From positions 11,580 to 75,579 of the forward strand of contig CAVZRA010000007.1 of assembly GCA_963777645.1 (NCBI GenBank): a stretch of 64,000 nucleotides of DNA, read 5' to 3'. A program made the position numbers and the translations under genes. The notes beneath the pieces are model-generated. The model worked only from the letters and a program-made list of their open reading frames with translations, was not told the DNA's origin and made no database searches. Below, in pieces: positions 536 to 61,711 of the stretch (the first letter of the stretch is position 1; every line of letters starts with the position of its first letter). The stretch is from an uncultured bacterium (GTDB lineage: Bacteria; Actinomycetota; Acidimicrobiia; Spongiisociales; UBA5794).

Positions 536-840
536 TGTTGTTTTCCCTTCTGCTGACTGTTGGCTCGAGCTGCGAACGTCGACCGCGCACTTGCTCCTTC
601 TCTCCGAGCCGACGATCGGGGTGTCGTCCCTCGACACCACATGTGCTCGTACCTCAATCAAGGTACGGGGAGCTTCTTGCCGTCTTGTGAACGGACCCTT
701 GCCATTCCGGAAACAGAAGTCGTCAGATAGGTTGACGCGGTGGCGTGACACCGACGTTGAGCCAGGCCCCGGCGCTCCCCCACCAGACCCCCCTGAATTG
801 CGGACGCATAGCGGCCTCAATAACTGCCAGAATCTCACCA

Positions 841-1464
841 ATGGCTGATCAGCATGTGACGATTGGTGCTCCGGTGACAGTGAAGCCCGCCAACGAAGCC
901 GCCTGGGAGGACATTCAAACTGTCTTTGGCACCCGCGGTGACGCGTCCCGCTGCCAGTGCCAGTACTACAAGATCCGGGACAAGGACTGGAAATCCTTTT
1001 CGGTGGCTGAGCGAGCATTTCGACTCCGCCAGCAGAGCGACTGTGGCTATCCGGACGCCGACGCAACCACCGGCCTCGTCGCCTATCTTCGAGACGAGCC
1101 GGTGGGGTGGTGCGCTGTCGAGCCGCGGTCGGCGTATCCCCGGCTCCGCTACATGCGGGTTCCCTGGTCTGGGCGTGACGAGGACATCGACGACGACACG
1201 GTGTGGGCGGTGACCTGCTTTACGGTCCGTGTCGGCTACCGCAGGCAGGGGATCAGCCGGGCGCTGGTCAGAGCCGCCGTGGGATTCGCCAGAGATCGTG
1301 GCGCTCGGGCGATCGAGGGCTATCCCATGACTGTCACCGCGACGAGGGACATCGTTTGGCTGGGGGAGCTGTTCGTTGGTGCGCAGAACATCTTTGCTGA
1401 GGCGGGATTCACCGAAGTCAGCAAACCGACCAAGCGTCGCGTTGTGATGCGAATCGACTTCTGA
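841..1464 (+). CDS. GNAT family N-acetyltransferase
   Basis: In frame with ORF 745..1464. I chose the ATG at 841 (MADQHVTIG). Acetyl-CoA motif VRVGYRRQGISRALVRAAVGFARDRGARAIEGYP. Confidence 0.75.
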   Translation: MADQHVTIGAPVTVKPANEAAWEDIQTVFGTRGDASRCQCQYYKIRDKDWKSFSVAERAFRLRQQSDCGYPDADATTGLVAYLRDEPVGWCAVEPRSAYPRLRYMRVPWSGRDEDIDDDTVWAVTCFTVRVGYRRQGISRALVRAAVGFARDRGARAIEGYPMTVTATRDIVWLGELFVGAQNIFAEAGFTEVSKPTKRRVVMRIDF

Positions 1465-1470
1465 GATACG

Positions 1471-1499
1471 AGAGACCGGCCCTTGGCGGGCCGGTCTCT
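1471..1499. terminator. bidirectional intrinsic-terminator-like hairpin between convergent genes
   Basis: Perfect 12-bp stem agagaccggccc / gggccggtctct with a 5-nt loop (ttggc). It starts 7 nt after the GNAT stop and ends 29 nt before the stop of the minus-strand gene. Confidence 0.6.
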
Positions 1500-1527
1500 G
1501 TGGCGGTCGAGGGGAGGGGATGACCCG

Positions 1528-2052
1528 TTATTGATCGTTGTGACGGTCTACTGAGTCGGCGTCGGAGTCGTTGAGCAGCTTCTGCGCCCGGTCGACCAGG
1601 TCCCGGTCACCGTGGGCGATGAGTAGGTACTTGCCTGCCTTCAGCGATTCTTCGTACTTGGGGATGTGCTGCTTCTTCACAAACGGCCCGGTGGCTGCAC
1701 CGACGAGGGCGCCCAGCGCCGCTCCGCCACCTGCGCCCTCGAGTGTGGCCAGAATCCAGGCTGCGGCGCTACCTGCTGCAAGAACCGGGCCGACACCCGG
1801 CAGGATCAAGAATGCAACGCCTGAGAAGAGCCCGAAAATGCCACCGATCCACGCACCCCATCCTGCGGTTGTCTTGGCGACGTCGGCTGTGGTCACAAAG
1901 CCATGGACTTCGGTCGTGCTCTCGAGGTTCTGGGTGATGATGGACATGTTGTCGACGGGGACCCCCTCGTCGGCGAGTCGACGCAGCGCTGCGTCCACAT
2001 GTTCCATGGACGAGAATGTGGCGACAACTCCTTCGATTGGCTGGTCGCTCAT
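1528..2052 (-). CDS. YflT/general-stress-protein-17M-like membrane protein with glycine-zipper C-terminal part
   Basis: Start trimmed to MSDQPIEGVVATFSSMEHVDAALRRLADEGVP (ATG at 2052). Gly/Ala-rich transmembrane stretch GWGAWIGGIFGLFSGVAFLILPGVGPVLAAGSAAAW. Confidence 0.55.
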   Translation of the reverse strand: MSDQPIEGVVATFSSMEHVDAALRRLADEGVPVDNMSIITQNLESTTEVHGFVTTADVAKTTAGWGAWIGGIFGLFSGVAFLILPGVGPVLAAGSAAAWILATLEGAGGGAALGALVGAATGPFVKKQHIPKYEESLKAGKYLLIAHGDRDLVDRAQKLLNDSDADSVDRHNDQ

Positions 2053-2873: not shown

Positions 2874-4275
2874 TCGACCAATGGCGGGCAGTGCACGACT
2901 CTCATCTCGATTCGGATGGAGAGCGTTCTGGCTGACGCTGATAATCCTGGTGGCCACCACGATCAGCACGGGGCTCTACTGGCGCGGCCGAATCCTCGAC
3001 ACGACGAGCGAGGCGCTCGATGCTCACATCTCGACGGTCGAGACCGCATTGGGGATCGATATCGCCGGTGGCTTCGACCCGTTTGCGGACGGCAGGGTCT
3101 TTCTCCTGGTGACGCCCGAGATCGGTCTCCAAATCTTCTCTGATGCAGGTGAGCCTCTCGCCGTTTCGCAAGATCTCAACGAGGCGCCGCTCATTGCGAT
3201 CGACAATGTTCCGCCAGGCGGTTTCACCGAAGAGCAGACGGACGTCAAAGGGTATGGCAACGCACTCGTGCGCGCTGCGGCGTTCGAGACGACTCAGAAG
3301 ACCTACTTCATCGAGACGGTCGCAAGCCTGAGCGACGTCGATACCGCCTGCGTGGCGATGTGTCTGATCGCCCCCATCGCGTCCATTGGAATTGCGGCTC
3401 TCGTCGCACTTGCGGTCGCCCTGTCGGTTGGCGCGGCCATGGCGCCGGTCAGGAAGATGTCGGAGAGAGCGGCCACGTTGTCCAACCGAGAGCGGCCCGA
3501 ACCGCTCAACGTGCCAGCCGACACAGCCGAGTTGAGGGAGCTCTCCAGTCGTCTGGACCAGCTTCTCGAGCAGATCAGAGTGGCGTTCGATCGGGAGCAG
3601 CAGTTCCTCGACGATGCCAGCCACGAGCTGCGGACCCCGATCGCAATCGCCAGAGCAGAGCTCGACCTGGCGCTTCGTGCCGCTCACGATTCCGACACCG
3701 CGGCGGCGTTGGAATCCTCGCTCGAGGAGCTGCGTAGGCTCGACGGCATGGCGTCGGATCTGCTTATGCTGGCCAGGGAGCGTGCGGCAGGCACTGAGAG
3801 TTATGTACCTGTCGACCTCGGTGATGTCGCCAAGGCGGCGGTTGCCACTGTGCGCAAAGACCCGGGTCAGCGGCCCGTCACCATCGACGTGCACGGTGCC
3901 GGCCGCATCGTCGGTGATCCGGATTCACTGGAACGGGCGCTGGTCAATCTCATCTCGAACTCGGTCCGTCACTGCAAGGGACTGGTTCGTGTCGCAATCA
4001 GCGACGCTGGCGGCGCCATCGAGGTCACCGTCGCAGATGATGGGCCAGGCATCCCGGAACATCTGCTCGAGACGCTCTTTGACAGGTTCACGCGGGGACG
4101 CAGCCGCGGAGCTCGCAGCACCGGTCTGGGTACCGCCATTGCCGCTGAGGTGGTTCGCCACCATGGAGGCACGATTCGTGCAGAGAATCGCCCGGAAGGC
4201 GGTGCCATTGTCACGATGCGGTTCCCGCGAGGGAGTCAGTTTGCGGGGGCTGTCGAGGGCCGGGCAAATCCCTGA
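2866..4275 (+). CDS. membrane sensor histidine kinase, partner of the OmpR-type regulator
   Basis: The ATG at 2866 overlaps the regulator stop (ATGCGTGA). Two TM segments. H-box FLDDASHELRTPIAI. N/G boxes LISNSVRH, DDGPGIP and STGLGTAIA. Confidence 0.9.
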   Translation: MRDRPMAGSARLSSRFGWRAFWLTLIILVATTISTGLYWRGRILDTTSEALDAHISTVETALGIDIAGGFDPFADGRVFLLVTPEIGLQIFSDAGEPLAVSQDLNEAPLIAIDNVPPGGFTEEQTDVKGYGNALVRAAAFETTQKTYFIETVASLSDVDTACVAMCLIAPIASIGIAALVALAVALSVGAAMAPVRKMSERAATLSNRERPEPLNVPADTAELRELSSRLDQLLEQIRVAFDREQQFLDDASHELRTPIAIARAELDLALRAAHDSDTAAALESSLEELRRLDGMASDLLMLARERAAGTESYVPVDLGDVAKAAVATVRKDPGQRPVTIDVHGAGRIVGDPDSLERALVNLISNSVRHCKGLVRVAISDAGGAIEVTVADDGPGIPEHLLETLFDRFTRGRSRGARSTGLGTAIAAEVVRHHGGTIRAENRPEGGAIVTMRFPRGSQFAGAVEGRANP

Positions 4276-6600: not shown

Positions 6601-7937
6601 CCGGGCACTTTATCCGGCCCTGCGCTGCCCGTCGCATACGGGATCGGGTCGGTCGTTGGGTCGGTGATGTCATCGACGATACGCCAGGCTTCCTCGACCG
6701 CGTCCTCGCGGGCGAACTGTGACCTGTCATCCGCCAGCGCGTCGTGGAGCACCCGCTCGTAGGCGAGCGGGATCCGGCCGAACACCTGGTCGTAGTCGAC
6801 GGTCAGGGGAGTCGTGGCGAGATCGAGGCCGTTGCCGGGGAGCTTGGTCTGCAGGACCAGGTCGACACCATCGCTCGGTCCGATACGGAACACAAGACGG
6901 TTCGCCTCGGGTGGCGTCGGGTCGGGGTCGAAGGGGAGCGGGGGGGATGGTAGGAATACGACCTCCGCCTTTGTGATCGTTCGATCGAGCGCCTTCCCTG
7001 CTGTGATCGAGAACGGCACACCGTACCAACGGGGAGTGTTGATGGCAGTCGTGAAGGAAATGAACGTGGCCGTCTTCGAGTCGGCCGCCACGTGCTTGAC
7101 ATCGCGATATCCCTCGTACTGCCCGTAGACGACCTCGTCGGGAGTGACGGCCTTCATGGCCCGCAGCACCTTCACTCGCTCATCGGCGTATGCGTCGGCG
7201 GCCGCTGTCACCGGAGCTTCCATGGCAAGCAACGACACAATCTGCAAGATGTGGTTCTGGACCACGTCCCTGACGACACCGAGCGAGTCGTAGAGCGCGC
7301 CCCGGCCGTCGACACCGAAGGACTCCGCCATGGTGATTTCTACCCGATCGATGTGGTGCCGGCTCCAGATGGCGTCAATGATCGGATTGGCGTACCGGAA
7401 GGTCAGCAGGTTCTCGACAGGCTCCTTGCCGAGAAAGTGATCAATGCGGAAGATCTTCTTCTCATCAATGACGCCGTGGAGGAAAGCGTTGAGCGCTCGT
7501 GCCGATTCCAGGTCGCGGCCAAACGGCTTCTCGACCAGCAACCGTGATCTCTCCAACAGTCCGACGGTGGCGAGGCTCCCGATGACCTTCTCGAAGAACG
7601 AAGGAGGGATGGCCATGTAGTGCAGGCACGCCCCGCTACCAACTGTGGCGGCGAGCCGATCAAATGTCGATCGGTCGTTGTAGTCACCCGAGACGTAGCT
7701 GAGCCGGCCGGTGAGCTGCTGGACAATCCTGCTATCGGGCTCGTCTATGGCTTCACCAATGGCCGCTGTGGCGTGTTTGGCGAGATCCTGATCCGTCCAG
7801 TCTTCGAGGGCGACGCCGATGATCCGCTGCTCGAGGTCGTGTCGCTCTTCCAACCTATAGAGCGCAGGGAAGAGCAGCTTCCTGGCCAGGTCACCGCTGG
7901 CGCCGAACAGCACGATCGTATCGATTGCCCTACTCAT
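6597..7937 (-). CDS. zwf: glucose-6-phosphate 1-dehydrogenase
   Basis: N-terminal dinucleotide motif VLFGASGDLARKLLFPALY. Active-site motif RIDHFLGKE. AGGAGGAA lies upstream of the ATG. The start overlaps the upstream GH15 stop (ATGAGTAG). Confidence 0.9.
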   Translation of the reverse strand: MSRAIDTIVLFGASGDLARKLLFPALYRLEERHDLEQRIIGVALEDWTDQDLAKHATAAIGEAIDEPDSRIVQQLTGRLSYVSGDYNDRSTFDRLAATVGSGACLHYMAIPPSFFEKVIGSLATVGLLERSRLLVEKPFGRDLESARALNAFLHGVIDEKKIFRIDHFLGKEPVENLLTFRYANPIIDAIWSRHHIDRVEITMAESFGVDGRGALYDSLGVVRDVVQNHILQIVSLLAMEAPVTAAADAYADERVKVLRAMKAVTPDEVVYGQYEGYRDVKHVAADSKTATFISFTTAINTPRWYGVPFSITAGKALDRTITKAEVVFLPSPPLPFDPDPTPPEANRLVFRIGPSDGVDLVLQTKLPGNGLDLATTPLTVDYDQVFGRIPLAYERVLHDALADDRSQFAREDAVEEAWRIVDDITDPTTDPIPYATGSAGPDKVPG

Positions 7938-10311
7938 TGATTCCTCCTATGGAGATCTGGTAGTCGATTCCTTCCCAGCCGGTGCTACGACGAATCGTAA
8001 ATAGGATCGAGCCTTGCTCCGGAAGGTCCGACCCGGGGATATCGATGTAGTGCATTCCGATGCCACTGTCGATGGTGTCTGCGTCGATCCGGGAAGTCCA
8101 ATTGTCAGTTGACCACCGTATGGTCGCCGATTCGGGGAGTTCAATGCGCAACGGCACGCCCGACTCGATGTCTGTGATCTTGTGGTTGGGGCGCCAGAAG
8201 CGCCGCGACGCCGCTACCGGGTCGGCATGATGCCTGGTGACGGCTCCCGGTAGATCGAAGATCTCGTGATCGGCGACCGATCGCAGCAGTTTGACGTACT
8301 CAGCGTGGGCCCACACCAGTGGTCTGGCGGATCCGGAAGCGGATCCAAAGACGAGCTCGCGTTCCGGTATGTCGGGTGCGTCCCAGATCTGCTCCGGGAT
8401 GAGCCCACTCGGCTCCGCCATGATCTCGATCGCTTTGATGAGCTCAGAGACAAGCGTGGTGTTGCCTGCCGCCAGCTCGTAGTGGGCGCGTTCGCCGGTC
8501 AGCAACGGCCATACTCGACCCCGGCCGGTGCCGTCGAAGGGACGACCGTCGTCGTGCTCGCCGTATCCGTCGCCGGTGTAGCGACGCCAACCCGGCCCGT
8601 AGTCGAACTCCTCGCGGAGGGTTGCGTCGATCACGGCGATGGTGTTGACGATGCGTGGATCATCCGGTTCCCTGAGGCCAAAGCGCACCAGAGCAAGCGC
8701 GTCCGGGCTCACCACCGCAGAAGCGGCCGCGACGTTCTGTCCCGCGGGCCGGTTCTTGATGCTGATCGATCCACCGACCGGCGCCTCGATGTTGTCGGTG
8801 GCACCGATCCTCACGTAGTAGCCGGGCACACCGACCACGGTGGCAAGGTCGGTGCCAGTTGCGTAGCACCATGCCTCGATGTGGGCATCCCAGCAGTCCG
8901 CCGTCTCCCTGAGGTACCGGGCAACTGTTCGCTCGTCACGGTGCTCTGCCATTTCGGCGGCGACAAGGAGGGCGGCGATCTCAGTGGCGAGAGAGAAAGG
9001 CGAGTAGCCACCGTCCTCCTCCCAGCGATCCTGGCCGGTGACCGGGCCGTTGGCCACGATGTAGCCAGCGGCAGACCGAACCATAGGCCAATAGCGGTCA
9101 CGCGCCTCCGGGGCGTCGAGGGCGCCTGAGGCTTTCGCCAGGTCCAGTAACAGAACCGGGAGCGCCGTTTCGTCGATCTGCACCCCACCCCAGTAGGGAG
9201 TCCCGTCGAGCCACATGTTCTGGGCCCAATGCCCGTCGGCTTCCTGGGTGGCCCGGAGATACGAGAGAGCGCGGAGGCCCTCAGCGTGTGCCCCGATAGC
9301 GAGTAGCCCTCCCGCCGTCTCAACGTGATCTCGTGGCCACACGAGGTGGTAGCCACCGAGATCCTGGTCACCCATGGAGTCCCCCCACGGGATGGAGAGC
9401 GAGGCAATCAGGCCACCTGGGAACGTAGCAGCTTCGTGCGTTGCCAGCACCGCTGCGCTCGTCCTTGCCATGGCACGATCCGACGGCAAGGTGATACTTC
9501 GTTGCCAATCCTCCCATTGGTTGCGGTACACGTCGAGGGCGGAGGAGAAGCCGTCACGCAGGGAGGCGATTGCGTGATGAGCAGCCTCAGCAGGTGCCCG
9601 ACCGAAGCCCATCGCTACGGTGAACCGCCCGTCGCATGCATCCAGGTCGGGCTGTAAGGCGATCGCAACATTGCCGTCGTCTGCGCGCTCCCATCGCCAG
9701 GTGAAAGCCTGATTGTGATGCAGGTCCTGCCAGGCATCGGAGGTGCCGACGTACCCCACCGAGCGAGCCACCACCGGGGTGTCGACGGCGCATGCGATTG
9801 CGATGTCGTCGCGTTGGGCGAACACCATTTCTGTTCCCTTGTGGACTTCGACCCAGGCCGAGTTGCCGGCTCCCTGATTGCCGAGGTGGGGGGCCGCCAG
9901 GAATACAACAGTGTGCTCACCCGGCCCGGACTCCACGGCGTCGTAGCAGACGTCGATCAAGACGACCGGCCGGATCGGGTCGGAAATGTAGCGCTGAGTG
10001 ACCTCGAAGGTCCCGCCGGGATCCGATAATTCGACGGCGAACGCCGGGATGCCGGGATCAATCGCCCTCGTGTGATGGGCGCAGTCGCGCTTCTCGTCGA
10101 TGAATCGCCCGTCCGGAGTGATCATCAGAAACTGTGCGTCACGAACCGCAGCCTGATCGATGCGTGGGTAGTAGATCTCGTTGAGGATGCCGTGGCTCAA
10201 GGTGAACCACACCGGGCTTGCCGCCGAATGGGCCGAGCCGACAGCTTCCTTTGCGCTTGACGTCCAGCGCGCGTCTATTCCGGGCGCTCCGGGGGCGTAT
10301 CGAGGTGACAT
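7930..10311 (-). CDS. glycoside hydrolase family 15 (glucoamylase/glucodextranase- or trehalase-like)
   Basis: Start trimmed to MSPRYAPGAPGIDARWTSSAKE (ATG at 10311, GGGGGA upstream). GH15 catalytic-domain motifs GGYHLVWPRDHVETAGGLL and RWEEDGGYSPFSLATEIAAL. N-terminal beta-sandwich and a C-terminal extra domain. Confidence 0.8.
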   Translation of the reverse strand: MSPRYAPGAPGIDARWTSSAKEAVGSAHSAASPVWFTLSHGILNEIYYPRIDQAAVRDAQFLMITPDGRFIDEKRDCAHHTRAIDPGIPAFAVELSDPGGTFEVTQRYISDPIRPVVLIDVCYDAVESGPGEHTVVFLAAPHLGNQGAGNSAWVEVHKGTEMVFAQRDDIAIACAVDTPVVARSVGYVGTSDAWQDLHHNQAFTWRWERADDGNVAIALQPDLDACDGRFTVAMGFGRAPAEAAHHAIASLRDGFSSALDVYRNQWEDWQRSITLPSDRAMARTSAAVLATHEAATFPGGLIASLSIPWGDSMGDQDLGGYHLVWPRDHVETAGGLLAIGAHAEGLRALSYLRATQEADGHWAQNMWLDGTPYWGGVQIDETALPVLLLDLAKASGALDAPEARDRYWPMVRSAAGYIVANGPVTGQDRWEEDGGYSPFSLATEIAALLVAAEMAEHRDERTVARYLRETADCWDAHIEAWCYATGTDLATVVGVPGYYVRIGATDNIEAPVGGSISIKNRPAGQNVAAASAVVSPDALALVRFGLREPDDPRIVNTIAVIDATLREEFDYGPGWRRYTGDGYGEHDDGRPFDGTGRGRVWPLLTGERAHYELAAGNTTLVSELIKAIEIMAEPSGLIPEQIWDAPDIPERELVFGSASGSARPLVWAHAEYVKLLRSVADHEIFDLPGAVTRHHADPVAASRRFWRPNHKITDIESGVPLRIELPESATIRWSTDNWTSRIDADTIDSGIGMHYIDIPGSDLPEQGSILFTIRRSTGWEGIDYQISIGGINE

Positions 10312-10417
10312 CAGCGTTCCCCCAACACCTTCGCGATGTTCGTGGTGGGTATCTCCAGGCTGAGACTGTCTTCGATGGTGTCGGCGGCGTAGCTCATGGG
10401 ATCTCCTCAGGTTTGCA

Positions 10418-10702
10418 TCACGAGGCTTGTCGATGCTCTTCGACTCTGATCCACTCGACGAAGGAGGCAACGTCTCCGCTGCGCTCATCGGCGATGTAGG
10501 TGTGAGCCCACTCCTCGATCTGCTTATCGGTGAACCCCTGACTGTGTAGCAACTCTCGAGCCTCGTTGGCGAGCAACTCCGAGCCCTCGAGGTGAGAAGC
10601 GTCCGGCAGCCGGCTCTTGACGCCAGCTTGGTCTGGGTGCTCTGGCTTCAAGCTTTCCATTTCGGCGTCCTCTCTTGGATTTGCTCTGTCCATCACCGTC
10701 AT
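10418..10702 (-). CDS. hypothetical small acidic protein
   Basis: 94-codon ORF with no recognisable domain. It sits upstream of the GH15-zwf-permease operon on the same strand. Confidence 0.35.
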   Translation of the reverse strand: MTVMDRANPREDAEMESLKPEHPDQAGVKSRLPDASHLEGSELLANEARELLHSQGFTDKQIEEWAHTYIADERSGDVASFVEWIRVEEHRQAS

Positions 10703-15100: not shown

Positions 15101-16138
15101 ATGAGCCGCATGGACAACGATTTGATCCGGGATGAGTTTCCGGACACAGCCGGCTATTTGAACACGGCATCGGTGGGCCTACCATCGCAAACCGCCTTGC
15201 AGGCGATACACACGGCGCTGGATGATTGGGCGGCAGGTCGGTCCGACCCGGTTGCGTTCGACGCGGACGTGGATCGAGCCCGCCGTGCCTACGCCCGACT
15301 TGCCGGCACGACTTCGGAATCGGTTGCCATTGTCAGCCAGGTGTCGGTGGCCAGTGCCATGGTGGCCGCCTCGTTACCGGATGGGGCGCGGGTGCTTTGT
15401 GCCGAGGAAGACTTTGCGTCGGTGTTGTTCCCGTTCCTCGCAGAGCGCAGGCTTGAAGTCGAATTCGTCCCTCTGGCATCGTTGCTCTCACATATCGATG
15501 AGAGAATCGATTTGGTTGCGGTGAGTGCCGCTCAATCCTCCGACGGCCGGGTGATCGATCTAGACGCGCTCGCAAGGATCGCTGCCGACACCGACACCAG
15601 GACCTATGTCGATGTGAGCCAATCTGCGGGCTGGCTGCCGCTAGGAGCAGACAGGTTCGACGTTACCGCCGGGGGCGCATACAAGTGGCTGCTCTCGCCG
15701 CGCGGCTCGGGATTTGTCACGGTGGCACCGCACGCGGATTGGGTGCGCCCGCTCTATCCGGGCTGGTACAGCGCCCAGGAACCGTGGGGTGCGTTGTACG
15801 GACCGCCGCTGCGCCTCGCCGACGATGCCCGACGGTTCGACGCGTCACCTGCGTGGTTCGACATGGTCGGTGCGGCTCGGTCGCTCGAGCTGTTGGCGGG
15901 AATCGGTGTGGAGGCGATTCAACATCACAGTGTTGGGCTCGCCAACGCTCTCAGGTCACATCTGGGCCTGGCACCGTCCAACAGTGCCATCGTCAGCGTG
16001 ACGACCGACCGAGCCCCCGCCTTGATGGAAGCGGGCATTAGGGGTGCTGTTCGGGCCGGTCGGGTCAGGCTCTCGTTCTACCTGTACAACACGAGCGAGG
16101 ACGTTGCCCGGGCGGCGGCCGCGCTTGGATACTGCTAG
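15101..16138 (+). CDS. class V aminotransferase-fold PLP enzyme (cysteine desulfurase/kynureninase-like)
   Basis: YLNTASVGLPS N-terminus and general class-V layout (VSAAQSSDGRVIDL..., GGAYKWLLSPRGSGF). Confidence 0.7.
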   Translation: MSRMDNDLIRDEFPDTAGYLNTASVGLPSQTALQAIHTALDDWAAGRSDPVAFDADVDRARRAYARLAGTTSESVAIVSQVSVASAMVAASLPDGARVLCAEEDFASVLFPFLAERRLEVEFVPLASLLSHIDERIDLVAVSAAQSSDGRVIDLDALARIAADTDTRTYVDVSQSAGWLPLGADRFDVTAGGAYKWLLSPRGSGFVTVAPHADWVRPLYPGWYSAQEPWGALYGPPLRLADDARRFDASPAWFDMVGAARSLELLAGIGVEAIQHHSVGLANALRSHLGLAPSNSAIVSVTTDRAPALMEAGIRGAVRAGRVRLSFYLYNTSEDVARAAAALGYC

Positions 16139-16995
16139 CCGAGTCCGGCCGCATTACGACGAAAGAGAAACGAGACCCAGGACCGGTACGGTGCCCATGC
16201 GCCGCTGATGGCGGCGAGCTCAGCGACGGAAGCCGCCGGGCGGTGGTATGCCGCCCGCATCGCTGCGTGGAGCCGCTGCTCGGCGCTCGGGAACACGTCG
16301 GGATGGCCGGCGCCGCGTACCAGGATCAGCTCGGCCGAGAACGGTCCAATCCCGGTGATGGTTCGCAGCCGCTCCAGCGCTTCGTCGGTGCCGACCGCCC
16401 GCAGCGCTGTGGGATCGAGCAATCCCTCAAGGGCAGCCTCAGCCACTGCGTGGAGTCGTTCGAGCTTCGCCGACGAGACGCCGGGTAGCGATGTGAGGGC
16501 GAGCAGGCGGCTCGGCGAAGGGAACGCAGCGAGGTCGGCAATCTTCTCGCCGTGCTCGGCCGCAATCCGGTTCTTGGTCCGCGACGCCTGGGTCATAGAG
16601 GACCGTTGCGAGATGACACCCCATACAGCGGCCTCGTAGGGAGTCCAGAAGCACACTGGACGCAGACCGGGGGAGTCGGCAATCAACTCGCCGGCGATGG
16701 GATCAAGGGCGCCGATCCCGGCCATGCCGGTCCCGTCGATATCGACCGAGAGGACGCGCGACACATGTGCGGATACGGCTTCTTCGTCGGCTCCGCCCCG
16801 AAACGTCGCCCGCAGCGCGGTCCCGTTCGCCGACACCTCGATTTCAACAGGATTCCAGGTGTCTTCAATGCAGGTCGCCCAGCGCAGTGTTGCCGCGCTG
16901 TTCTGGTCGGACGCCGTTGGTGGCCATCCGGAGAGGAAGGAGATCGCAGAGCCGAGGTCATATGGCCCTTGCGGCCGGATTGTGAGCGTATCCAT
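16135..16995 (-). CDS. HhH-GPD DNA glycosylase (AlkA-like, 3-methyladenine glycosylase II family)
   Basis: Helix-hairpin-helix motif ITGIGPFSAELILVRGAGHPDVFPSAE. GAGGGGAAACA lies upstream of the ATG. Its stop overlaps the aminotransferase stop (CTAG). Confidence 0.7.
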   Translation of the reverse strand: MDTLTIRPQGPYDLGSAISFLSGWPPTASDQNSAATLRWATCIEDTWNPVEIEVSANGTALRATFRGGADEEAVSAHVSRVLSVDIDGTGMAGIGALDPIAGELIADSPGLRPVCFWTPYEAAVWGVISQRSSMTQASRTKNRIAAEHGEKIADLAAFPSPSRLLALTSLPGVSSAKLERLHAVAEAALEGLLDPTALRAVGTDEALERLRTITGIGPFSAELILVRGAGHPDVFPSAEQRLHAAMRAAYHRPAASVAELAAISGAWAPYRSWVSFLFRRNAAGLG

Positions 16996-17040
16996 TGTTT
17001 CCCCTCGATGCCGTGTCAGGCTGTTCTATGTCCCGATGTG

Positions 17041-17081
17041 CAGTATAAGTATGCTTATATTATATCAGCATACTTATACTG
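17041..17081. promoter_or_regulatory. perfect 15-bp inverted repeat (candidate MarR operator) overlapping divergent promoter elements
   Basis: cagtataagtatgct-N11-agcatacttatactg. It lies in the only strongly AT-rich patch of this intergenic region. The spacer reads TATAAT on the minus strand. TATACT ends 6 nt before the marR ATG. Confidence 0.6.
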
Positions 17082-17086
17082 TTGGC

Positions 17087-17509
17087 ATGGTGAACGCAAC
17101 GGACCGCGTGGGATACGTCTTGAAACGGGCGCAATACGCTTTACGGCGGAGAATGGATGAAGCCCTGGCCGTGGTCGGTTTGACCACACCGCAATACGCA
17201 GTGCTGGCAGCGCTCGAAGAAGAGGCCGGTCTGTCCAATGCCGAGTTGGCGAGGAGATCGTTCGTTACGCCTCAGTCGATGATCAGGGTTGTCGCCGGGC
17301 TCGAGCAGCGTCAACTCATCACAAGGCACCGACATGAGGGGAACGCCCGGGTACTCGACGCCGACCTGACCCGCCGTGGTAGGGCCGTGGTATCGCAAGC
17401 ACACACGATTGTCGCCGAGATCGAATCTACCATGCTGGCTGACGTTGATCCCGGCGACATCACGACCGCTACGAGGGCTTTGGCTGTGATGGCCGCAAAC
17501 CTCGAGTAG
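17087..17509 (+). CDS. MarR family transcriptional regulator (probably leaderless mRNA)
   Basis: MVNATDRVGYVLKRAQYALRRRMDEALAVVGLTTPQYAVLAAL...LSNAELARRSFVTPQSMIRVVAGLEQRQLITR is a winged HTH. No SD is present; a -10-like TATACT lies 6 nt upstream of the ATG. Confidence 0.85.
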   Translation: MVNATDRVGYVLKRAQYALRRRMDEALAVVGLTTPQYAVLAALEEEAGLSNAELARRSFVTPQSMIRVVAGLEQRQLITRHRHEGNARVLDADLTRRGRAVVSQAHTIVAEIESTMLADVDPGDITTATRALAVMAANLE

Positions 17510-18118
17510 CTACTGCTCCATGGACGGGTTCCATACCTCCCATACCTTGCCGACCAGATCGGGCCCCGGCTTGAGCGTCAACTGACCGGGCTCCCACCCG
17601 GCAGGTGTGGCTTCTGCTCCACCCGTTTCACGAACCAGCTGGAAAGCGCTTATCTGGCGGATGGTCTCGGCGAGTTTGCGTCCGACCGGCGGCGTGAGCA
17701 CTTCCATGCCCTGGATCACTCCGTCGGGATCGATGATGAACCTGCCGCGTAGCTCGATGCCCTGGTTCTCGTCCCACACGCCGTAGGCACGGCCGATGTT
17801 GCCCGCCTGATCTGAAGCCATCGGGAACGGCACACCACCGTCGACCATCTTGGTCAATTCGTAGTCGTTCCACATCTTGTGAACGAAGTGGCTGTCGACA
17901 CTCACCGAGATGACATCGACACCGAGGTCTTGGAGCTCTTGATACTTGTCGGCGACCGCCGACACTTCTGTCGCTCAGACGAAGGTGAAGTCACCCGGAT
18001 AGAAACACAGCAACACCCACTTGCCGACGTGATCCGACAGCGATACGGAGGTGAAGCCACCATTGTGATAGGCGGGGGCCGTGAAATCGGGCGCCTTCTG
18101 CCCTACGGTCGCAGTCAC
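17510..18118 (-). CDS. peroxiredoxin (AhpC/Prx1 type) with in-frame TGA (17975-17977) at the peroxidatic Cys position; candidate selenoprotein
   Basis: ORFs 17975..18247 and 17510..17965 share one frame and are separated only by TGA. Read-through gives KAPDF...[15 protein letters not shown][U][14 protein letters not shown]...[20 protein letters not shown] lies 5 nt upstream of the GTG at 18118. An alternative ATG is at 18217. Confidence 0.75.
17947..17964 (-). promoter_or_regulatory. bacterial SECIS-like hairpin downstream of the in-frame UGA
   Basis: In mRNA sense: UGA-N10-ugucggc[GGUC]gccgaca. This is a 7-bp GC-rich stem with a GGUC tetraloop occupying nt 21-24 counted from the U of UGA. 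Confidence 0.55.
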
Positions 18119-18299
18119 TCGGACCTCCTTCAGGGGCTCAGCGGACTGTTCATTCGACGGTTTCGGATCTTCCCCGACGATCCCGGTGACCCGGGCACAT
18201 CCGAGTTGATCTGCCATTGTTCGTCTCCCATTCTCGGGACCGTCCAAGCTTAACTCACACCTTGCTGCTGCAAGATTCGACCCCGTCTAGCCTTGCCGC

Positions 18300-19514
18300 A
18301 TGAAGCAGGCATTCACCAACACCATCATTTGGACAGGGACCGGGCCCGAGATTCGGCAGGGAACGCTGGTCGTGGACTCGGGCAAGATCGTGGCCGTTGG
18401 CACTGATGTCGACACAGCCGGGGCGACTGTCGTCGACTGTGCCGGTGCCTATGTCCTCCCCGGCTTCGTCGACCCCCATACCCACACCGGGGTATGGGGT
18501 GAGGGAGCCCGTGACGACTACGACGGCAACGAAATCTCTGAAGCCATCACCCCATATACGAGGGCACTCGACGCCATCTACCCCGAGGACATCGGGTTCG
18601 ACGATGCCCGTAGAGGGGGAGTGACGACCCTCGGTATCTCCCACGGTTCGGCGAACCCGATCGGTGGGCAGGTCTCGGTGGTGAAGAGCTACGGCCTCGT
18701 TGCAGACGACATGGTCATCAAAGAGCCGGCCGGGGTGAAGATGGCGCTCGGTGAGAACCCAAAACGTGTCGGCGAGCATTACAAACGCGCTCCGAGCTCG
18801 AGGATGGGAGTGGCTTACCTGGCCAGGAAGGCTTTCTACGAAGCGATCGAATACCGCAAGGACTGGGAGCATCATCAGGCCCTGGTCGCTGCCGAGAACC
18901 TCAAGGATGAGGCGGAACGCCGGCCGCTTCGGGAGCCGAAGCTCGATCTCGGCAAGGAGATGCTGCTGAAGGTGCTGGACCGCGAGATACCGGTGCGCAA
19001 CCATGCCCACAGGATGGACGACATCCGCACCGCCATCCGGCTCGCAGACGAGTTCGGGTACCGCCTGGTCATCGAGCACGCCACGGAGGCGTACCGGATC
19101 GCAGATGAGATCGCTTCCCGGGACGTGATGCTGGCGATCGGCCCGCTCTTCGGCGACCGGTCGAAGCGTGAAGTGAACAGGGCGACACCCGCAAGCGTCG
19201 GGATCATGGTCGAGCATGGGTGCACGGTGGCGATCATGACCGACTCACCGTTCAACCCGATCCACAATCTCAGGGATCTGGCCATCTTCGCCATCCGGGA
19301 GGGTCTCGATCCGAGTCGAGCCCTGGAGACGATCACGATCAACGGAGCACGCATTCTCGGTGTCGACGACCGTGTCGGCACGCTCGAGCCGGGGAAGGAC
19401 GCCGACTTCGTGATCATCGACGGCGATCCCTGGGACGCACGCAACAAGGTGCAAGCGACGTATATAGATGGGCAGCGGGTGTTCGAGGCAACCGGGCCGT
19501 ACCTGCCGGATTGA
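18300..19514 (+). CDS. amidohydrolase-superfamily metallo-hydrolase
   Basis: YVLPGFVDPHTHTG metal-binding HxH motif. C-terminal GTLEPGKDADFVIIDGDP motif typical of the family. Confidence 0.85.
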   Translation: MKQAFTNTIIWTGTGPEIRQGTLVVDSGKIVAVGTDVDTAGATVVDCAGAYVLPGFVDPHTHTGVWGEGARDDYDGNEISEAITPYTRALDAIYPEDIGFDDARRGGVTTLGISHGSANPIGGQVSVVKSYGLVADDMVIKEPAGVKMALGENPKRVGEHYKRAPSSRMGVAYLARKAFYEAIEYRKDWEHHQALVAAENLKDEAERRPLREPKLDLGKEMLLKVLDREIPVRNHAHRMDDIRTAIRLADEFGYRLVIEHATEAYRIADEIASRDVMLAIGPLFGDRSKREVNRATPASVGIMVEHGCTVAIMTDSPFNPIHNLRDLAIFAIREGLDPSRALETITINGARILGVDDRVGTLEPGKDADFVIIDGDPWDARNKVQATYIDGQRVFEATGPYLPD

Positions 19515-25257: not shown

Positions 25258-26631
25258 GTGGTGACACGACGAATAGTTGTAGTGGCGAACCGGCTCCCCG
25301 TGTCCTGGGACGGGGACAACTGGGTGACGAGCCCCGGTGGCCTGGTGCGCGCTCTCGAGCCCGTCCTACAGAAGGTGGGCGGCTCCTGGGTAGGTTGGTC
25401 CGGCAACACCGGTGAGGCGCCCGAGCCGTTCGAACATGACGGCATCGAGCAACGCCCGGTCTCGCTGACCGAGGAAGAGCTCGAGGACTTCTACTACGGA
25501 TTCTGCAATAGCGCACTATGGCCGCTCTATCACGATGCGGTGATCTCCCCCGAATTCCATCGTCATCACTGGCGGCCGTACCAGAGGGTCAATAGGCGCT
25601 ACGCCGGCGTCGCGGCCGATACGCTCCAGGCAGGAGATATCGCCTGGGTGCAGGATTACCAACTCCAGCTCGTGCCAGGCATGCTGCGCGAGCTACGCGA
25701 CGACGTCACCATCGGCTTCTATCTGCATATTCCGTTTCCGCCCATCGAGCTCTTCTCCAGATTGCCGTGGCGTCGCCAGGTCATCGAGGGTTTGCTGGGA
25801 GCCGATGTGCTGGCCTTCCAAACCAGGACAAGCGTGCAGAACTTCGCCCGCGCCGCCAGGAGGTTTGGCGGCGCCAAAGCCATCGGCCGCTACGAGCTGG
25901 AATGGAATGGGCGTCTCATCAAGCTGCAACGAGCACCGATCGCGATCGACACCGACCACTTCGAACGGGTGGCGCGGTCGGACTCGGTGCAGCAGCGGGC
26001 GAGCGAGCTGCGCCACGAGCTGGGAGATGTCGAACACATCATCCTCGGCGTCGACCGGCTCGATTACACCAAAGGCATCGACCTGCGGCTCAAAGCATTC
26101 GCCGGGTTGCTCGAGCGCACCGCAGATCATCCCCGTCGCTACGCGTTCGTCCAGGTGGCCGTCCCCAGCCGGGAGAACGTACTGGCGTACCAGGAGCTGC
26201 GATCCGAGATCGAGCAGCTGGTGGGGAGGATCAACGGCGACTTCGGCGTGCCGGGATGGTCTCCGGTCTCCTACCTGTACCGAAGCTTGCCGCTCGAGGA
26301 TCTGATCTCTTACTACGTGGCTGCGGATGTGATGCTGGTCACTCCACTGCGGGACGGGATGAACCTGGTGGCCAAGGAGTATGTGGCGTGCCGGCGTGGC
26401 CTGCCTGGAGTGCTGGTACTCAGCGAGTTTGCCGGGGCGGCCGAGCAGCTCAAATCGGCGGTGATCGTCAACCCGCACGATGTCGACAGCGTCACCGACG
26501 CCCTGCTTCAAGCTACCGAGATGAACTACGGCGAGGCTCGCATCAGGATGCAACGACTGCGCCGCACCGTGCAGCGCGAAGACGTTTTCAAGTGGGCAGG
26601 CGATTGCCTCGCGGAGCTCGAAGCTCTGTGA
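25258..26631 (+). CDS. otsA: alpha,alpha-trehalose-phosphate synthase (GT20)
   Basis: [27 protein letters not shown]-terminus. Also [35 protein letters not shown] and LSEFAGAA. Confidence 0.9.
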
Positions 26632-26640
26632 CGGACGCGG

Positions 26641-29600
26641 CTATTGGATGAGACGGAGCGCTCCCCGTAGCGCGATCCAGACCATTTCGGGCCGCTGCAC
26701 CAGCTCCCACTCGACCTCCCGGAGTGCCTTTGACAACTCAAAGGCAACAAGGAGCGCCTCAATGCTCTCATCTTCAGTGGGGAGCACAGGTGAGCCGGTG
26801 GCGGCTTCAACGTATGCGCCGACAAATCGCTCACCGAGCATCCGGTACCACCGCTCAGCATGAGCAACCGCATCGGGCCTGCCGGAGCTGCGGGCAGCCG
26901 CAAGCGCTGCATAGTGGAACGATCGAATCATCTCGGCGACGTCACGCAGCGGAGGTGCCTTGAGTCGTCGTTCGCTGATCGGCCGCGTGTGGTCGCCGCT
27001 GAGATCCAACATATAGAACTCGTTGTCGATCAAACGCAGCTCATCGAGCCGGTAGTTGCCGTGGATACGGGTACGTCGACCACTCGCCGGTACCTGTCGC
27101 ACCCGGTTGATCACTGTCAGCATCGCCGACTCCGCCCCGAGCAAGGTCTCCAGGTCGCTACGAACGTCGTCGGGGGCTTGCTCGAAGTTGTTGCGAATCG
27201 ACGTCAGTTCCTGTTTCACGCCGGCGCGCAGCGACTGATAGAGCGAGCGTTGATAGAGGCTGGTCACCGGGGCCGGGCGGAGTTCGGGCTCCTCGGTCTG
27301 GGTAGCGAGCGCTTGATGGAACTCTGCAGTCGTCACCCCGAGCGTTGTTGCGTACGCGAGAGTGGTGTCGAGCGCTTCCGAAACATCGGCTGCTGTCCGC
27401 GTGTCTTCGTTCAGCCAACCTGTGACCGGTACCTCTCCGGGTGCGGGCACGTCTCCGATCTGTTCGAGATAGGTGAGGCACAAGTCGCGGAATAGTGTCC
27501 ATGCAGTGATTTCGGGATCGAGGTTCTTCTGCATCATGCCGAGGCTGAACGTGTCCCGCGATTGGTATTCGAGCGCCCCGTAGACGGGGGAGAGGTTCTC
27601 GAAGCTGGTGCGATCGGTCAAGTAGCGGCGCAATTCCAGGTCGGGGTGCGTTCCGGGCTCGATGTTGCGAAATAGCTTGAGAGTGAGGTCAGGGCCATAT
27701 TGGATGAACGTCTCTCCCTGTGCCGTTTGTTGCAGACGGGGCATCGTATCGGCATCGCCGAGATCCAGATCTGCAACCCGGGCATGACTCCACACCGCGC
27801 CGGTGCGGCCGAGCATTTCCCGGCCTTCGACAATCGCCCCGTACAAGGCGAGGCAGAACTGAGGGTCGTATACGGCGTCGACGAGACATCGGGGGCCCTC
27901 GCCGTCGTCGATGAACGCCACGGTCGCTTCCTCGGGCAGCGATTCATCATCGGCCGATCGCAAGCTGAGCGGCATCACGTACCGCTGCGGCGGGCCGGTG
28001 ACGTACTCGATGTCGAGCAGCACGATCCAACCGGCGCGAGTTCCCTCGTCGTCGGCAATCGGGATCGCATCGAACGTCGATGCGCTCAGCCGCCGTTTGC
28101 CCCGGTCGGCGTACCAGACCTGGTGCTCCGCGTACTTGGCGAGGTGGCTGGCAAACGGGTGGTCACTGCTGAACAGCTCCTCGACCGGGCCATTGACCAT
28201 GAAGCTGTTCTGGTCACCGGGATCTGAGTCCTGATAGACAATTGAGAACCAGTAGTAGCCGTACGGGCTGAGGGTGAGCAGGTAGGGAAGGTCACCAATC
28301 CGGGGGAAATCGGTGTGACCGAGTAGCTCTACGGGGTGGGCACCCGCATGCTCGCGGAGATCGAGTTCGACGAACTGAGCATGCCTGCTCAGGTTTGCCA
28401 CCACCAGGATGGTCTCACCATCACCCTCACGAATGTAGGTGAGAACTCGATCGTTCTGAGGTTGTAGGAAGCGTATCGAGCCGCGGCCAAACACCGGATG
28501 ACGGCGGCGCCGCCTGATCATCCTTCTCGTCCACCAGAGCAACGAATTCGGATTGGCGTGCTCGGCCTCGACGTTCACCGTCTCGAAGTGGTACTGCGGG
28601 TCGACGACAACAGGCAGGTAGAGCGACTGTGGGTTTGCGGAGGAGAACCCCGCATTCCGATCGTTGCTCCATTGCATCGGGGTACGGACCCCCTCACGGT
28701 CGGCGAGGAAGATGTTGTCGCCCATACCCAACTCGTCGCCGTAGTACATGACCGGTGTCCCCGGCAGCGAGAGGAGCAGGCTCATCAACAGCTCGATCCT
28801 GCGCCGATCGTTGCCGAGAAGAGGAGCCAGCCGACGCCTGATCCCCAGGTTGAGCCTGGCGCGGCGATCTGGCGAGTAGGTTCGCCACATCAAATCCCGC
28901 TCCTCCTCGGACACCATCTCGAGAGTCAGCTCGTCGTGGTTGCGGAGGAAGATCGCCCACTGCGCGGACTCGGGAATGGCAGGGGTCTGTTCGAGAATGT
29001 CGATTATGGGGAGCCGGGTCTCTCGCTCGAGGGCGAGGTAGAGCCGGGGCATGAGCGGGAAGTGGAACGACATGTGGCACTCGTCGCCATCGCCAAAGTA
29101 GGCGACTGCATCTTCCGGCCATTGGTTGGCTTCGGCGAGAAGCATACGGTCCCCGTACTTCTCATCGATATGGGCCCGCAACGTGCGAAGCTCGGCATGG
29201 GTTTCGGGGAGGTTCTCTCCGTTGGTGCCCTCTCTCTCGTGGAGGTAGGGGATGGCATCGAGCCGCAGCCCGTCGACTCCCATGTCCAGCCAGAAGTCGA
29301 GCACATCGACAACTGCCTCCCTGACCTCGGGATTGTTCCAATTGAGGTCCGGCTGGTGAGAGAAGAAACGATGCCAGAAGTAGGCATCCGCCACCGGATC
29401 CCAGGCCCAGTTGGATGTCTCGGTGTCCTGGAAGATGATCCTGACATCCTGATACCGATCCGGGGTGTCGTTCCATACGTAGAAATCGCGTTCCGGTGAT
29501 CCGGATTCGGCACGTCGGGCGCGCTGGAACCAGGGATGCTGATCCGAGGTGTGGTTGATCACGAGCTCGGTGATCACGTACATACCCCGGGTATGAGCCT

Positions 29601-29880
29601 CGCTAAGAAAATGGCGGAATTCCTCGAGAGTTCCGTAGCTCGGGTGTACGTCGTAATAGTCGGCGATGTCGTAGCCGTCGTCGCGCAGCGGGGAGGGATA
29701 GAAGGGTAGGAGCCAGATCGCGGTGACCCCGAGCTGCTGCAGGTAGTCGAGCCTGCTTGTCAGACCGGTGAAGTCGCCGATGCCATCTCCGTTCGAGTCT
29801 GCAAAGGCTCTCACGTGCACTTCGTAGATGACCGCGTCGCGGTACCAACCGGGAGGACGATGGATCTGGACGTCTGACAT
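26641..29880 (-). CDS. treS: trehalose synthase fused to a C-terminal maltokinase-like (Pep2/Mak) domain
   Basis: Start trimmed to [26 protein letters not shown] (ATG at 29880). GH13 catalytic motifs [22 protein letters not shown] and [11 protein letters not shown]. The C-terminal ~450 aa resemble aminoglycoside-phosphotransferase-fold maltokinase ([16 protein letters not shown]). Confidence 0.85.
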
Positions 29881-29971
29881 CCGCCCAAGATTAGGGTCAG
29901 GGGCCGAGTGCTCGTCAACCCATCGTATGAAGGCACTAGTTTTAAGGGGTAGCGCGAGTAAGGAGTATGCG

Positions 29972-31549
29972 GTGTTGCAGCTGAACGGTATCGATCTGAA
30001 GAACGTCGGCACGGTGCACCACAATTTGTCTACACCGGCCCTCTACGAGGAGGCGGTTCGCCGTGGTGAGGCGATGCTCGGTCATCTCGGGCCGCTTGTG
30101 GTGAGCACCGGCAAGTACACGGGGCGCTCCGCCAACGACAAGTTCGTGGTTCGAGAGCCCTTCACCGAAGACATCATTTGGTGGGGCAAGATCAACAAGC
30201 CATTCGATCCGATCGACTTCGACAAGGTTCTGTACGGGCTCCGCTCTTATCTCCAGAACAAAGACATCTTCGTTCAGGACGGCTACGCAGGCGCCGACCC
30301 GAAATACCGGATAAGGGTGCGCGTCATCAGCGAGCATGCCTGGCACAGCCTGTTCGCCCGCAATATGTTCATACGGGAGTTCGATCCCGAAGTGATTGCA
30401 GCGTTCGAGCCGGATTACACAGTCATCCACTGTCCCAGCTTCCAAGCCGATCCCGAGCAAGAACACACTGCGAGCGAGGCCTTCGTCTTGCTCAACCTCG
30501 ATCGCAAGATGGTGGTGATCGGCGGGACAAGCTATGCGGGTGAGATCAAGAAGTCGATCTTCACCGTCATGAACTACTTGATGCCTATTCGAGGTGTGCT
30601 CAGCTTGCACTCTTCGGCAAACGTCGGCCCCGACGGGGATGCTGCAGTGTTTTTCGGTCTTTCGGGAACCGGCAAGACCACGCTCTCTACCGAGGCGGAC
30701 CGGGCATTGATCGGTGACGACGAGCTCGGCTGGAGCGACGAGGGTGTCTTCAACTATGAGGGCGGCTGTTATGCCAAGATGATTCGCCTGTCCGATGAAT
30801 CGGAGCCGGAGATCTACCAGACCACCCGTCGTTTCGGGACGGTGCTCGAGAACGTGACCATCGATCCGACGACCCGCCGTCTCGATCTGAGCGAGGCATC
30901 GACCGAGAACACACGCGGGGCGTATCCGATCACCCACATCGACAATATCGTTGCAGGCTCGATGGCCGGCCATCCGAAGAATGTCTTCATGCTCACCGCC
31001 GATGCATTCGGGATACTGCCACCGATTGCCCGGCTCGATGAGGCTCAGGCCCGATACCATTTCATCTCCGGTTACACCGCCAAGGTGGCAGGGACTGAGC
31101 GCGGCGTGCAGGAGCCGCAAGCGACCTTCTCTGCATGTTTTGGGGCACCATTCATGCCGCTTCATCCGACGGTCTATGCGGACCTGCTCGGCAAGAAGAT
31201 CCGCGACCACGACGTACGAGTGTGGCTGATCAATACCGGTTGGACGGGAGGGCCCTACGGCGTGGGGACGCGATTCAAGATTGCGAACTCCCGGGCCGTG
31301 ATTCGGGCCGCACTCAATGGCGATCTCGATCGTGTCGAGTATCGGAGCGACCCGGTGTTCGGTTTTGAGGTACCCGTGGAGTGCCCGGGGTTGCCCATCG
31401 AGTTGTTGACTCCCCGAGAGACCTGGGGTGATCCGAACGAATACGATGCCAGAGCGGCGGAGCTGGCGGAGCTCTTCCGAGCCAACTTCGAGGAGTTCGC
31501 AGAGCTGGCGGGTGCCGAGCTGGCAGCCGCCGGGCCGGTCGCAGGGTGA
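29972..31549 (+). CDS. pckA: phosphoenolpyruvate carboxykinase (ATP)
   Basis: AAGGAG lies 6 nt upstream of the GTG at 29972. Motifs [12 protein letters not shown] and the kinase-1a loop [13 protein letters not shown]. Confidence 0.9.
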
Positions 31550-46200: not shown

Positions 46201-46274
46201 GGGCGTTTAGCTCAGTTGGCTAGAGCGCCTCCCTTACAAGGAGGAGGTCACTGGTTCGAGTCCGGTAACGCCCA
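46201..46274 (+). tRNA. tRNA-Val (anticodon UAC)
   Basis: Manual cloverleaf. Acceptor stem GGGCGTT/AACGCCC. D arm GCTC-AGTTGGCTA-GAGC. Anticodon stem CCTCC/GGAGG with loop CTTACAA. T arm ACTGG-TTCGAGT-CCGGT. Discriminator A. CCA is not encoded. Confidence 0.9.
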
Positions 46275-46508
46275 CGCGGACCTGCTGGGGTAGGCCTACT
46301 GGCAGTTTCCTATCTGCTCAAATGACGCGCGCCAGGATCTGGCCCGCAGACGAAAGTGGACTAGACAACAGACATCGTCTGCCGCTGTAGCGCTGAACAT
46401 GTGGCTGAGAAGTCGTGGCTGAGCCAGCTGATGTTGCGCTGCTCCTGGGGTTTGGTGCTGACCCGGAAGCGAACCCCGGGATACCGGGCGCACATGTCTT
46501 GTGTCGGA

Positions 46509-61273: not shown

Positions 61274-61305
61274 GAGAGAGCCCCCGGGATCCCGGGGGCT
61301 CTCTC
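61274..61305. terminator. perfect 32-nt palindrome; bidirectional terminator for the REC-PAS gene and rnpB
   Basis: gagagagcccccggg-at-cccgggggctctctc (15-bp arms). It lies directly 3' of the RNase P RNA and 22 nt after the REC-PAS stop. Confidence 0.7.
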
Positions 61306-61307
61306 CT

Positions 61308-61711
61308 GTGAGCCCGGTTGTAAGCCGGATTCTGTATCCGACCGTCGGGTGTAACGCCGACGGTCGGCGACGACCATCTATCTGGGCCCGTCATTGCTGA
61401 ACGGGCTCGTGCGGCCTACCTGGGATTGATGAGCGGGCAACTCGCTCCCTGCTTGGCCTTGCTCCTGGTGGGGTTTGCCGAGCCGCCCCGGTCACCCGGG
61501 ACGCTGGTGGTCTCTTACACCACCGTTTCACCCTTGCCTGTGTGTGTCCCATGCGGGCCACACCGTGGGCGGTCTGCTCTCTGTTGCACTTTCCGTCGGG
61601 TCACCCCGCCTGGGTGTTACCCAGCACCATGCCCTGCGGAGTCCGGACTTTCCTCGGTCGGTGCGCCGAACAAGTCGGCGAGGCCGAACGCGGTCGTCGG
61701 CCGGGCTCGTC
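61308..61711 (-). ncRNA. rnpB: RNase P RNA, bacterial type A
   Basis: Minus-strand reading contains the universal elements GAGGAAAGUCCGGACUCC (61655-61638), GGGUAACACCCAGG, GGAAAGUGCAACAGA, GCAAGGGUGAAACGGUGGUGUAAGAGACCACCAG, GGCAAACCCCACC, AGCAAGGCCAAG, AGAUAGAUGGUCGUCGCC and ACAGAAUCCGGCUUACA. P1 pairs gagcccgg (61708-61701) with ccgggctc (61317-61310). The ends are approximate. Confidence 0.9.

Follow-up and report, generated by a model that had tools for sequence, protein, structure and literature searches.

A PrxU-family peroxiredoxin gene with a probable selenocysteine codon at its active site in an uncultured actinobacterium of the class Acidimicrobiia

The DNA analyzed here, hereafter the window, is a stretch of 64,000 nucleotides from an uncultured bacterium of the class Acidimicrobiia. 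Its minus strand carries a peroxiredoxin gene, prxU, whose frame was found by inspection of ORFs and translations to be open from 18217 to 17510, with a TGA codon at 17975-17977 as sole interruption and no frameshift. When this TGA is read through, the coding sequence (17510..18217, minus strand) comprises 235 codons followed by a TAG stop at 17512-17510. A preliminary description of the locus had reported two minus-strand ORFs lying in the same frame (17975..18247 and 17510..17965) and separated only by the TGA and three sense codons. Both are present, and the intervening codons are GCG, ACA and GAA. The active site of the translated protein reads PGDFTFV-TGA, and the read-through translation confirms that the TGA occupies the peroxidatic-cysteine slot of the AhpC/Prx1 signature, as had been proposed. 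The remainder of the gene was also said to be undamaged, which agrees with the absence from 18217-17510 of any further stop and of any frameshift.

The prxU gene stands alone. An amidohydrolase gene (18300-19514) is divergent from it, and its other neighbors encode GNAT acetyltransferases, a MarR-family regulator and a glycosylase-like protein; domain annotation of the neighboring genes revealed neither ahpF nor ahpD beside prxU.

For comparison, species-representative genomes were scanned with the C-terminal fragment of the protein, yielding 361 relatives from which the best 80 loci were kept. These loci bear on the position of the translation start. The preliminary description had placed it at a GTG codon, 18118-18116, preceded at 5 nt by a strong Shine-Dalgarno sequence, AAGGAGG (18130-18124, the whole signal covering 18116..18130 on the minus strand), so that the TGA would fall at about codon 48. 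This ribosome-binding site does exist, but the comparative data favor an upstream ATG at 18217-18215, which lies 7 nt from a GGGAG motif at 18229-18225 (18215-18229, minus strand). Upstream of GTG 18118, the frame is open in all 78 loci with sufficient upstream sequence among the best 80 of 361, and in these relatives the extension opens with an ATG preceded by GGAG. It then displays the motif M-A-(D/E)-Q-x-x-G-C-(A/G)-R-(V/T)-T-G, followed by a linker rich in Pro, Glu and Ser that varies in length, always remains in frame and leads to the Prx domain. The core of this motif, GC[AG]R[VT]TG, is conserved in 78/78 loci despite the differing linker length and reads GCARVTG in the window. The corresponding N-terminal extension of the window gene (18119..18217, minus strand) adds 33 codons, with an open frame, an ATG and the conserved Cys motif, and aligns with positions 3-34 of the NCBIfam PrxU model described below. 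The gene therefore probably starts at ATG 18217 rather than at GTG 18118 and would encode 235 amino acids, in which case Sec is residue 81 and UGA codon 81 (17975..17977, minus strand) supplies the peroxidatic residue of PxxxTxxU (P74...T78...U81), a motif defined in PMC13188914.

The two in-frame pairs of Shine-Dalgarno and start signals, GGGAG with ATG 18217 and AAGGAGG with GTG 18118, are both conserved across the 78 loci. At the internal start column, an ATG or a GTG with a preceding GGAG is found in nearly all loci among the best 80 of 361, and two short homologues carrying Cys instead of Sec (P0002 and P0095) begin at this position. A second, tail-less PrxU isoform initiated at the internal start is possible on this basis.

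Profile comparisons assign the gene to a known family. The full-length protein scores 383 bits, for a cutoff of 270, against NF040737 (peroxi_PrxU), an equivalog-level NCBIfam model of a thioredoxin-dependent peroxiredoxin, and its residues 6-232 cover positions 3-232 of the 233 of the model; the short form, with Cys substituted for the TGA, scores 374.9 bits against the same cutoff. The AhpC equivalog model TIGR03137 yields 196 bits, below its cutoff of 272. Pfam matches are PF00578 (AhpC-TSA, 136.9 bits) and PF10417 (1-cysPrx_C) at the C-terminal domain. Judged by these models, the gene is a member of the already curated selenoprotein family PrxU. The preliminary description had cited PrxU of Eubacterium acidaminophilum as a precedent; this was the right family, but it was better known than the description allowed, since NCBI maintains a dedicated PrxU model. 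This Sec peroxiredoxin was reportedly first purified from Eubacterium (Peptoclostridium) acidaminophilum. The published protein is said to measure 203 amino acids, which we take to be a short form initiated at the internal Met. The TxxU peroxiredoxin is counted among the experimentally verified prokaryotic selenoprotein families (PMC13188914), the verification being that of Sohling et al. 2001, as cited in PMC13188914 and PMC1794560. By 2006, peroxiredoxin already ranked among the more frequent selenoprotein families of bacteria (PMC1794560), and a PrxU protein has been seen by proteomics in Sulfobacillus (PMC7409299).

The codon at the active-site column is the central question. TGA is found at the identical column in 80/80 loci (the best 80 of 361), within the context FYPGDFT[FY]V*ATE. 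These loci span at least six phyla: their hosts include Acidimicrobiia and other Actinomycetes, Anaerolineales and other Chloroflexota, Acidobacteriota, Burkholderiaceae and other Gammaproteobacteria, Spirochaetota and Phycisphaerales. Among the best 120 homologues in protein collections, the same column holds Trp in 85 cases, Cys in 14 and Ser in one, while 18 entries are fragments of 151 amino acids beginning just past the TGA. The Trp residues are TGA codons translated by the gene caller under another genetic code, and 103 of these 120 homologues imply a TGA against 14 with Cys. Both TGA and TGC do occur at this position, the alternation anticipated by the preliminary description, with TGA dominant in the genomic loci (80/80) as in the proteins (103 versus 14 of 120). 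Such a placement of TGA at the Sec column is, from the alignments, far beyond chance.

Across the phyla, the Prx domain of Acidimicrobiia shares 83-88% protein identity with that of Chloroflexota, Acidobacteriota and Proteobacteria, and the hairpin following the TGA is nearly identical (L007-L080 versus window 17510-17965). This unusually high identity suggests horizontal spread or very strong constraint.

A single base change suffices to convert TGC or TGT into TGA, and one may ask whether a nonsense mutation, or a sequencing error, has simply killed an ordinary Cys peroxiredoxin. The conservation of the TGA in every one of the 80 loci and across phyla speaks against such a pseudogene, as does the integrity of the window gene, which carries no other lesion. 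Selection speaks against it as well. Relative to the nearest Acidimicrobiia relatives, dN/dS amounts to 0.03-0.2 on either side of the TGA (47 codons ahead of it, 154 beyond it), and dS in these comparisons is about 0.4-2; both halves are therefore translated and under strong purifying selection, which excludes a recent nonsense mutation. Lesions were encountered in two of the 80 relatives. One of them, L005, is the closest relative and its frameshift could be read in favor of gene decay: its locus, at ~3003, contains a 1-nt insertion, an extra T located 18-19 codons past the TGA. Beyond this insertion, differences continue to occupy the third codon positions of the original frame, and because these substitutions keep the frame, the insertion is most simply explained as a long-read assembly error. 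In the other, L073, MTARVG*K contains an in-frame stop, close to the internal start. The pseudogene reading also draws on the fact that the Sec machinery is absent from the 64-kb window, a point considered below, and it faces the RNA-level evidence that follows.

A candidate bacterial SECIS hairpin, UGUCGGC-GGUC-GCCGACA, lies 17 nt past the UGA (17947..17964, minus strand); it consists of a 7-bp stem closed by the 4-nt apical loop GGUC (17957-17954, minus strand). The hairpin alone folds at -11.2 kcal/mol and its 56-nt context at -21.1 kcal/mol (z = -3.07). The bSECIS model of PMC13188914 calls for a loop of 3-9 nt, a stem of 4-16 bp, a G in the first two loop positions, a spacing of 16-37 nt from the UGA and a minimum free energy of at most -7.5 kcal/mol, and the window hairpin, with its 4-nt GGUC loop, 7 bp, 17-nt spacing and -11.2 kcal/mol, falls within all these limits. 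It resembles the fdhF-type SECIS/SelB system of E. coli in being a stem-loop within the coding sequence that follows the UGA directly on its 3' side, whose first loop positions contain G and whose spacing falls inside the 16-37 nt range. It differs from the E. coli element in being short and perfect (7 bp, 4-nt loop), with no identifiable bulged U, and SelB binding is predicted.

The stem is maintained as RNA across the family. Over 81 sequences, 95.5% of its cells are paired, and cells in which both partners have changed number 34, against 10.5 +/- 2.2 after shuffling; none of 500 shuffles reached the observed value, and the signal collapsed in controls in which the register was slid. Compensatory changes convert G-C to A-U or G-C to C-G and occur at synonymous positions. 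Two stem pairs covary in this manner, linking Val GUG/GUA with Asp GAC/GAU and Ser UCG/UCA/UCC with Ala GCC/GCU/GCG. Synonymous variation is depressed accordingly: the entropy of four-fold third positions is 0.48 bits over codons +4 to +8, against a mean of 1.57 elsewhere in the gene, and the two four-fold sites located in the loop are invariant. A constraint at the RNA level on top of the protein constraint is the expectation for a functional SECIS, and a dead gene would lose both the covariation and the frozen synonymous sites. Taken with the conservation of the TGA and with purifying selection, the covariation of the hairpin effectively refutes, as far as comparative evidence reaches, the pseudogene or sequencing-error explanation, to which we attach a very small probability.

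An Rfam scan found no matching SECIS family at the window hairpin, an unsurprising outcome given the scant coverage of bacterial SECIS elements in that database. Low synonymous variation also extends upstream of the UGA (17978-17989, minus strand), where Thr ACC shows 0.58 and Val GUC 0.64 bits for a gene mean of 1.57; at these codons, -3 and -1, codon context or a constraint from the lower stem, acting on Sec insertion, may be responsible.

The hairpin also bears on the idea of a genuinely split gene, in which two polypeptides, one N-terminal of 80 aa and one of 151 aa initiated at GTG 17965, would be made separately and then assemble. Gene callers do predict precisely these two pieces. The GTG at 17965 nevertheless lacks a Shine-Dalgarno sequence and is overlapped by the hairpin, the Ala-Thr-Glu codons between the TGA and this GTG are conserved as protein in all loci (best 80 of 361), and the catalytic residue would vanish from the assembled product; such an arrangement has next to no probability.

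Reassignment of TGA as in genetic codes 4 or 25 was considered and ruled out. TGA ends 31 of the 48 confident ORFs in the window and is the commonest stop, and the standard genetic code therefore applies. The statement that no other gene of the window shows an in-frame TGA of this kind holds: the only other read-through candidate (3925-3927, minus strand) lies opposite a histidine-kinase gene, in antisense orientation, and was rejected as an artefact.

A different reading grants read-through of the UGA but denies that Sec is inserted: the lineage would have lost its Sec machinery recently, or a near-cognate tRNA would insert Trp or Cys, and the enzyme would be weak or inactive. This reading gains some substance from the frequent loss of the Sec trait during bacterial evolution (PMC1794560). 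Against it, comparison with the nearest relatives gives dS of ~0.4-0.8 with dN/dS of ~0.03-0.05 and an unchanged SECIS, values that denote long-term upkeep of both hairpin and coding sequence; a Trp at the catalytic position would moreover be inactive, hence unselected. The Sec trait is also documented in the class Acidimicrobiia, universal Sec machinery having been described in another order of this class (bioRxiv 10.64898/2026.04.03.716425). We regard read-through without Sec as improbable, if slightly less so than decay of the gene.

No selA, selB, selD or tRNA-Sec gene was detected within the 64-kb window by scans for tRNA-Sec, Rfam families and SelA/SelD motifs or by Pfam/NCBIfam annotation of ~35 ORFs. 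Linkage between prxU and Sec genes is found among the relatives. A Burkholderiaceae MAG (L031, 61-3460) presents the order selA-selB-tRNA-Sec-prxU, its selB scoring 457 bits on TIGR00475, and in two further MAGs a full selA directly follows prxU (L022, 3636-5042, 574 bits; L068, 3652-5052, 587 bits). These three MAGs in which prxU adjoins Sec genes are unrelated to one another. L022 additionally carries upstream a gene for a TsoY-family (seleno)protein (785-2029, minus strand, 506 bits). For the source organism of the window itself, Sec competence is an inference from the selection data and from the Sec trait reported in Acidimicrobiia.

The preliminary proposal of a candidate Sec peroxiredoxin is supported by several lines of evidence: the alternation of TGA and TGC, SECIS covariation, purifying selection, the match to PrxU and the linkage to sel genes in relatives. 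The in-frame TGA is very probably a selenocysteine codon and not a lesion, and we hold with high confidence that the window contains an intact prxU gene predicted to encode a 235-aa Sec-containing peroxiredoxin with a thioredoxin fold of AhpC/Prx1 type and with UGA-81 decoded as Sec. By analogy with the established bacterial Sec pathway, SelB carrying Sec-tRNA(Sec) would bind the mRNA hairpin 17 nt past UGA-81, and Sec would be inserted at this codon instead of termination.

The cysteine content of the predicted selenoprotein sets it apart from typical 2-Cys peroxiredoxins. The best match among solved structures is AhpC of Amphibacillus xylanus (PDB 1WE0, E = 3e-44), which covers nearly the full Prx domain, and human PRDX3 is matched as well. 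Like typical 2-Cys AhpC/Prx1 enzymes (1WE0, Salmonella AhpC, PRDX3), the window protein possesses the FYPxDFTFV(C/U)xTE signature and a C-terminal GW.PG; unlike them, it has Sec in place of the peroxidatic Cys, Thr in place of the resolving Cys (EVCP) and an additional 33-aa N-terminal tail with a conserved Cys. The Thr in question, Thr204 (codon 17606..17608, minus strand, in EATPAGW), stands where typical 2-Cys peroxiredoxins have their C-terminal resolving Cys and aligns with that of Amphibacillus AhpC 1WE0 and of human PRDX3 (EVCPAxW). EATPAGW is found at this column in 69 of 78 loci, and only one has Cys. The window PrxU contains exactly two Cys: Cys7, within the N-terminal motif (codon 18199-18197, minus strand), and Cys71, within LLCFYPGD, 10 residues ahead of Sec81 (codon 18005..18007, minus strand). 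The Cys71 column is occupied by Cys in 78/78 loci drawn from the best 80 of 361 and Cys7 is likewise invariant within PrxU relatives; 76 of the 78 relative proteins have exactly two Cys plus the Sec.

Family chemistry would place Sec81 at the N-terminus of the active-site helix, where its selenolate would attack H2O2 or an organic hydroperoxide and be converted to a selenenic acid. Because the canonical C-terminal resolving Cys is missing, another thiol would have to resolve this intermediate. Cys7 is the most plausible candidate, its tail being flexible; alternatives are Cys71 and an external thiol. Regeneration of the enzyme would then fall to thioredoxin, in keeping with the name of the family. 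We tentatively propose, as a possibility and not as the expected outcome, that Cys7 forms a selenenylsulfide with Sec81, perhaps across a dimer, and that the internal start allows a tail-less isoform served by a different reductant. The AlphaFold model of a Cys-form homologue (P0033) has a Prx core with pLDDT >90, an N-terminal tail at 52-58 and a linker below 50, and a tail modeled at such low pLDDT neither supports nor excludes docking of Cys7 at the active site. Nothing addressing the N-terminal Cys tail of PrxU was found in the searchable literature. If correct, the Cys7 mechanism would set apart, within the Prx1/AhpC-fold peroxiredoxins, a mechanistic subclass that could be called 'N-terminal-resolving'.

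With PrxU of E. acidaminophilum and the NF040737 family, the window protein shares the AhpC/Prx1 fold, PxxxTxxU with Sec as the peroxidatic residue, a SECIS directly after the UGA and the lack of a C-terminal resolving Cys. It differs from the E. acidaminophilum protein in that the conserved frame is here the long form with Cys7, and in that it comes not from a strict anaerobe but from an actinobacterium of Acidimicrobiia type, high in GC and probably aerobic.

The window gene is one more instance of a known selenoprotein that is widespread in public MAGs; its practical value lies in annotation, and what novelty is left resides in the role of the N-terminal Cys tail and in the possible dual start. 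Automatic annotation had been expected to split the gene into fragments, and this is what Prodigal-style calls produce: in L081, a 93%-identical relative whose contig is syntenic with the window region, a standard gene caller has cut prxU into 'AhpC-TSA' genes of 80 and 151 amino acids. The PrxU family is systematically mis-annotated in protein collections, either with Trp at the catalytic column (85/120) or as 151-aa fragments (18/120). Hundreds of PrxU relatives in MAGs of Acidimicrobiia, Chloroflexota and Acidobacteriota from soil and wastewater are mis-called, so that these abundant uncultured lineages are credited with too little antioxidant capacity and too little use of the selenium trait.

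Several features of the surrounding DNA are worth recording. The MarR-family gene (16697-17509, plus strand) converges on prxU and ends one base ahead of its stop codon; it shows a weak, sub-threshold similarity to OhrR (36 bits) and is missing at that position in L081. A gene for a protein of the class-V aminotransferase fold (15101-16138, plus strand), weakly similar to cysteine desulfurases and to EgtE, lies near prxU, and its counterpart in L081 (10470-11495) immediately adjoins prxU; any role in mobilizing selenium or sulfur is a matter of speculation. Otherwise the window is an ordinary actinobacterial chromosome, including PEPCK and two-component systems. It contains a trehalose/glycogen cluster (7930-10488 and 25258-30024) with glucodextranase/GH15, OtsA-type GT20 and a TreS-maltokinase fusion, which is common to L081 and typical of actinobacterial chromosomes, together with a tRNA-Val(TAC) gene (46201-46275, plus strand) and a bacterial class A RNase P RNA (61305-61709, minus strand, 260.9 bits).
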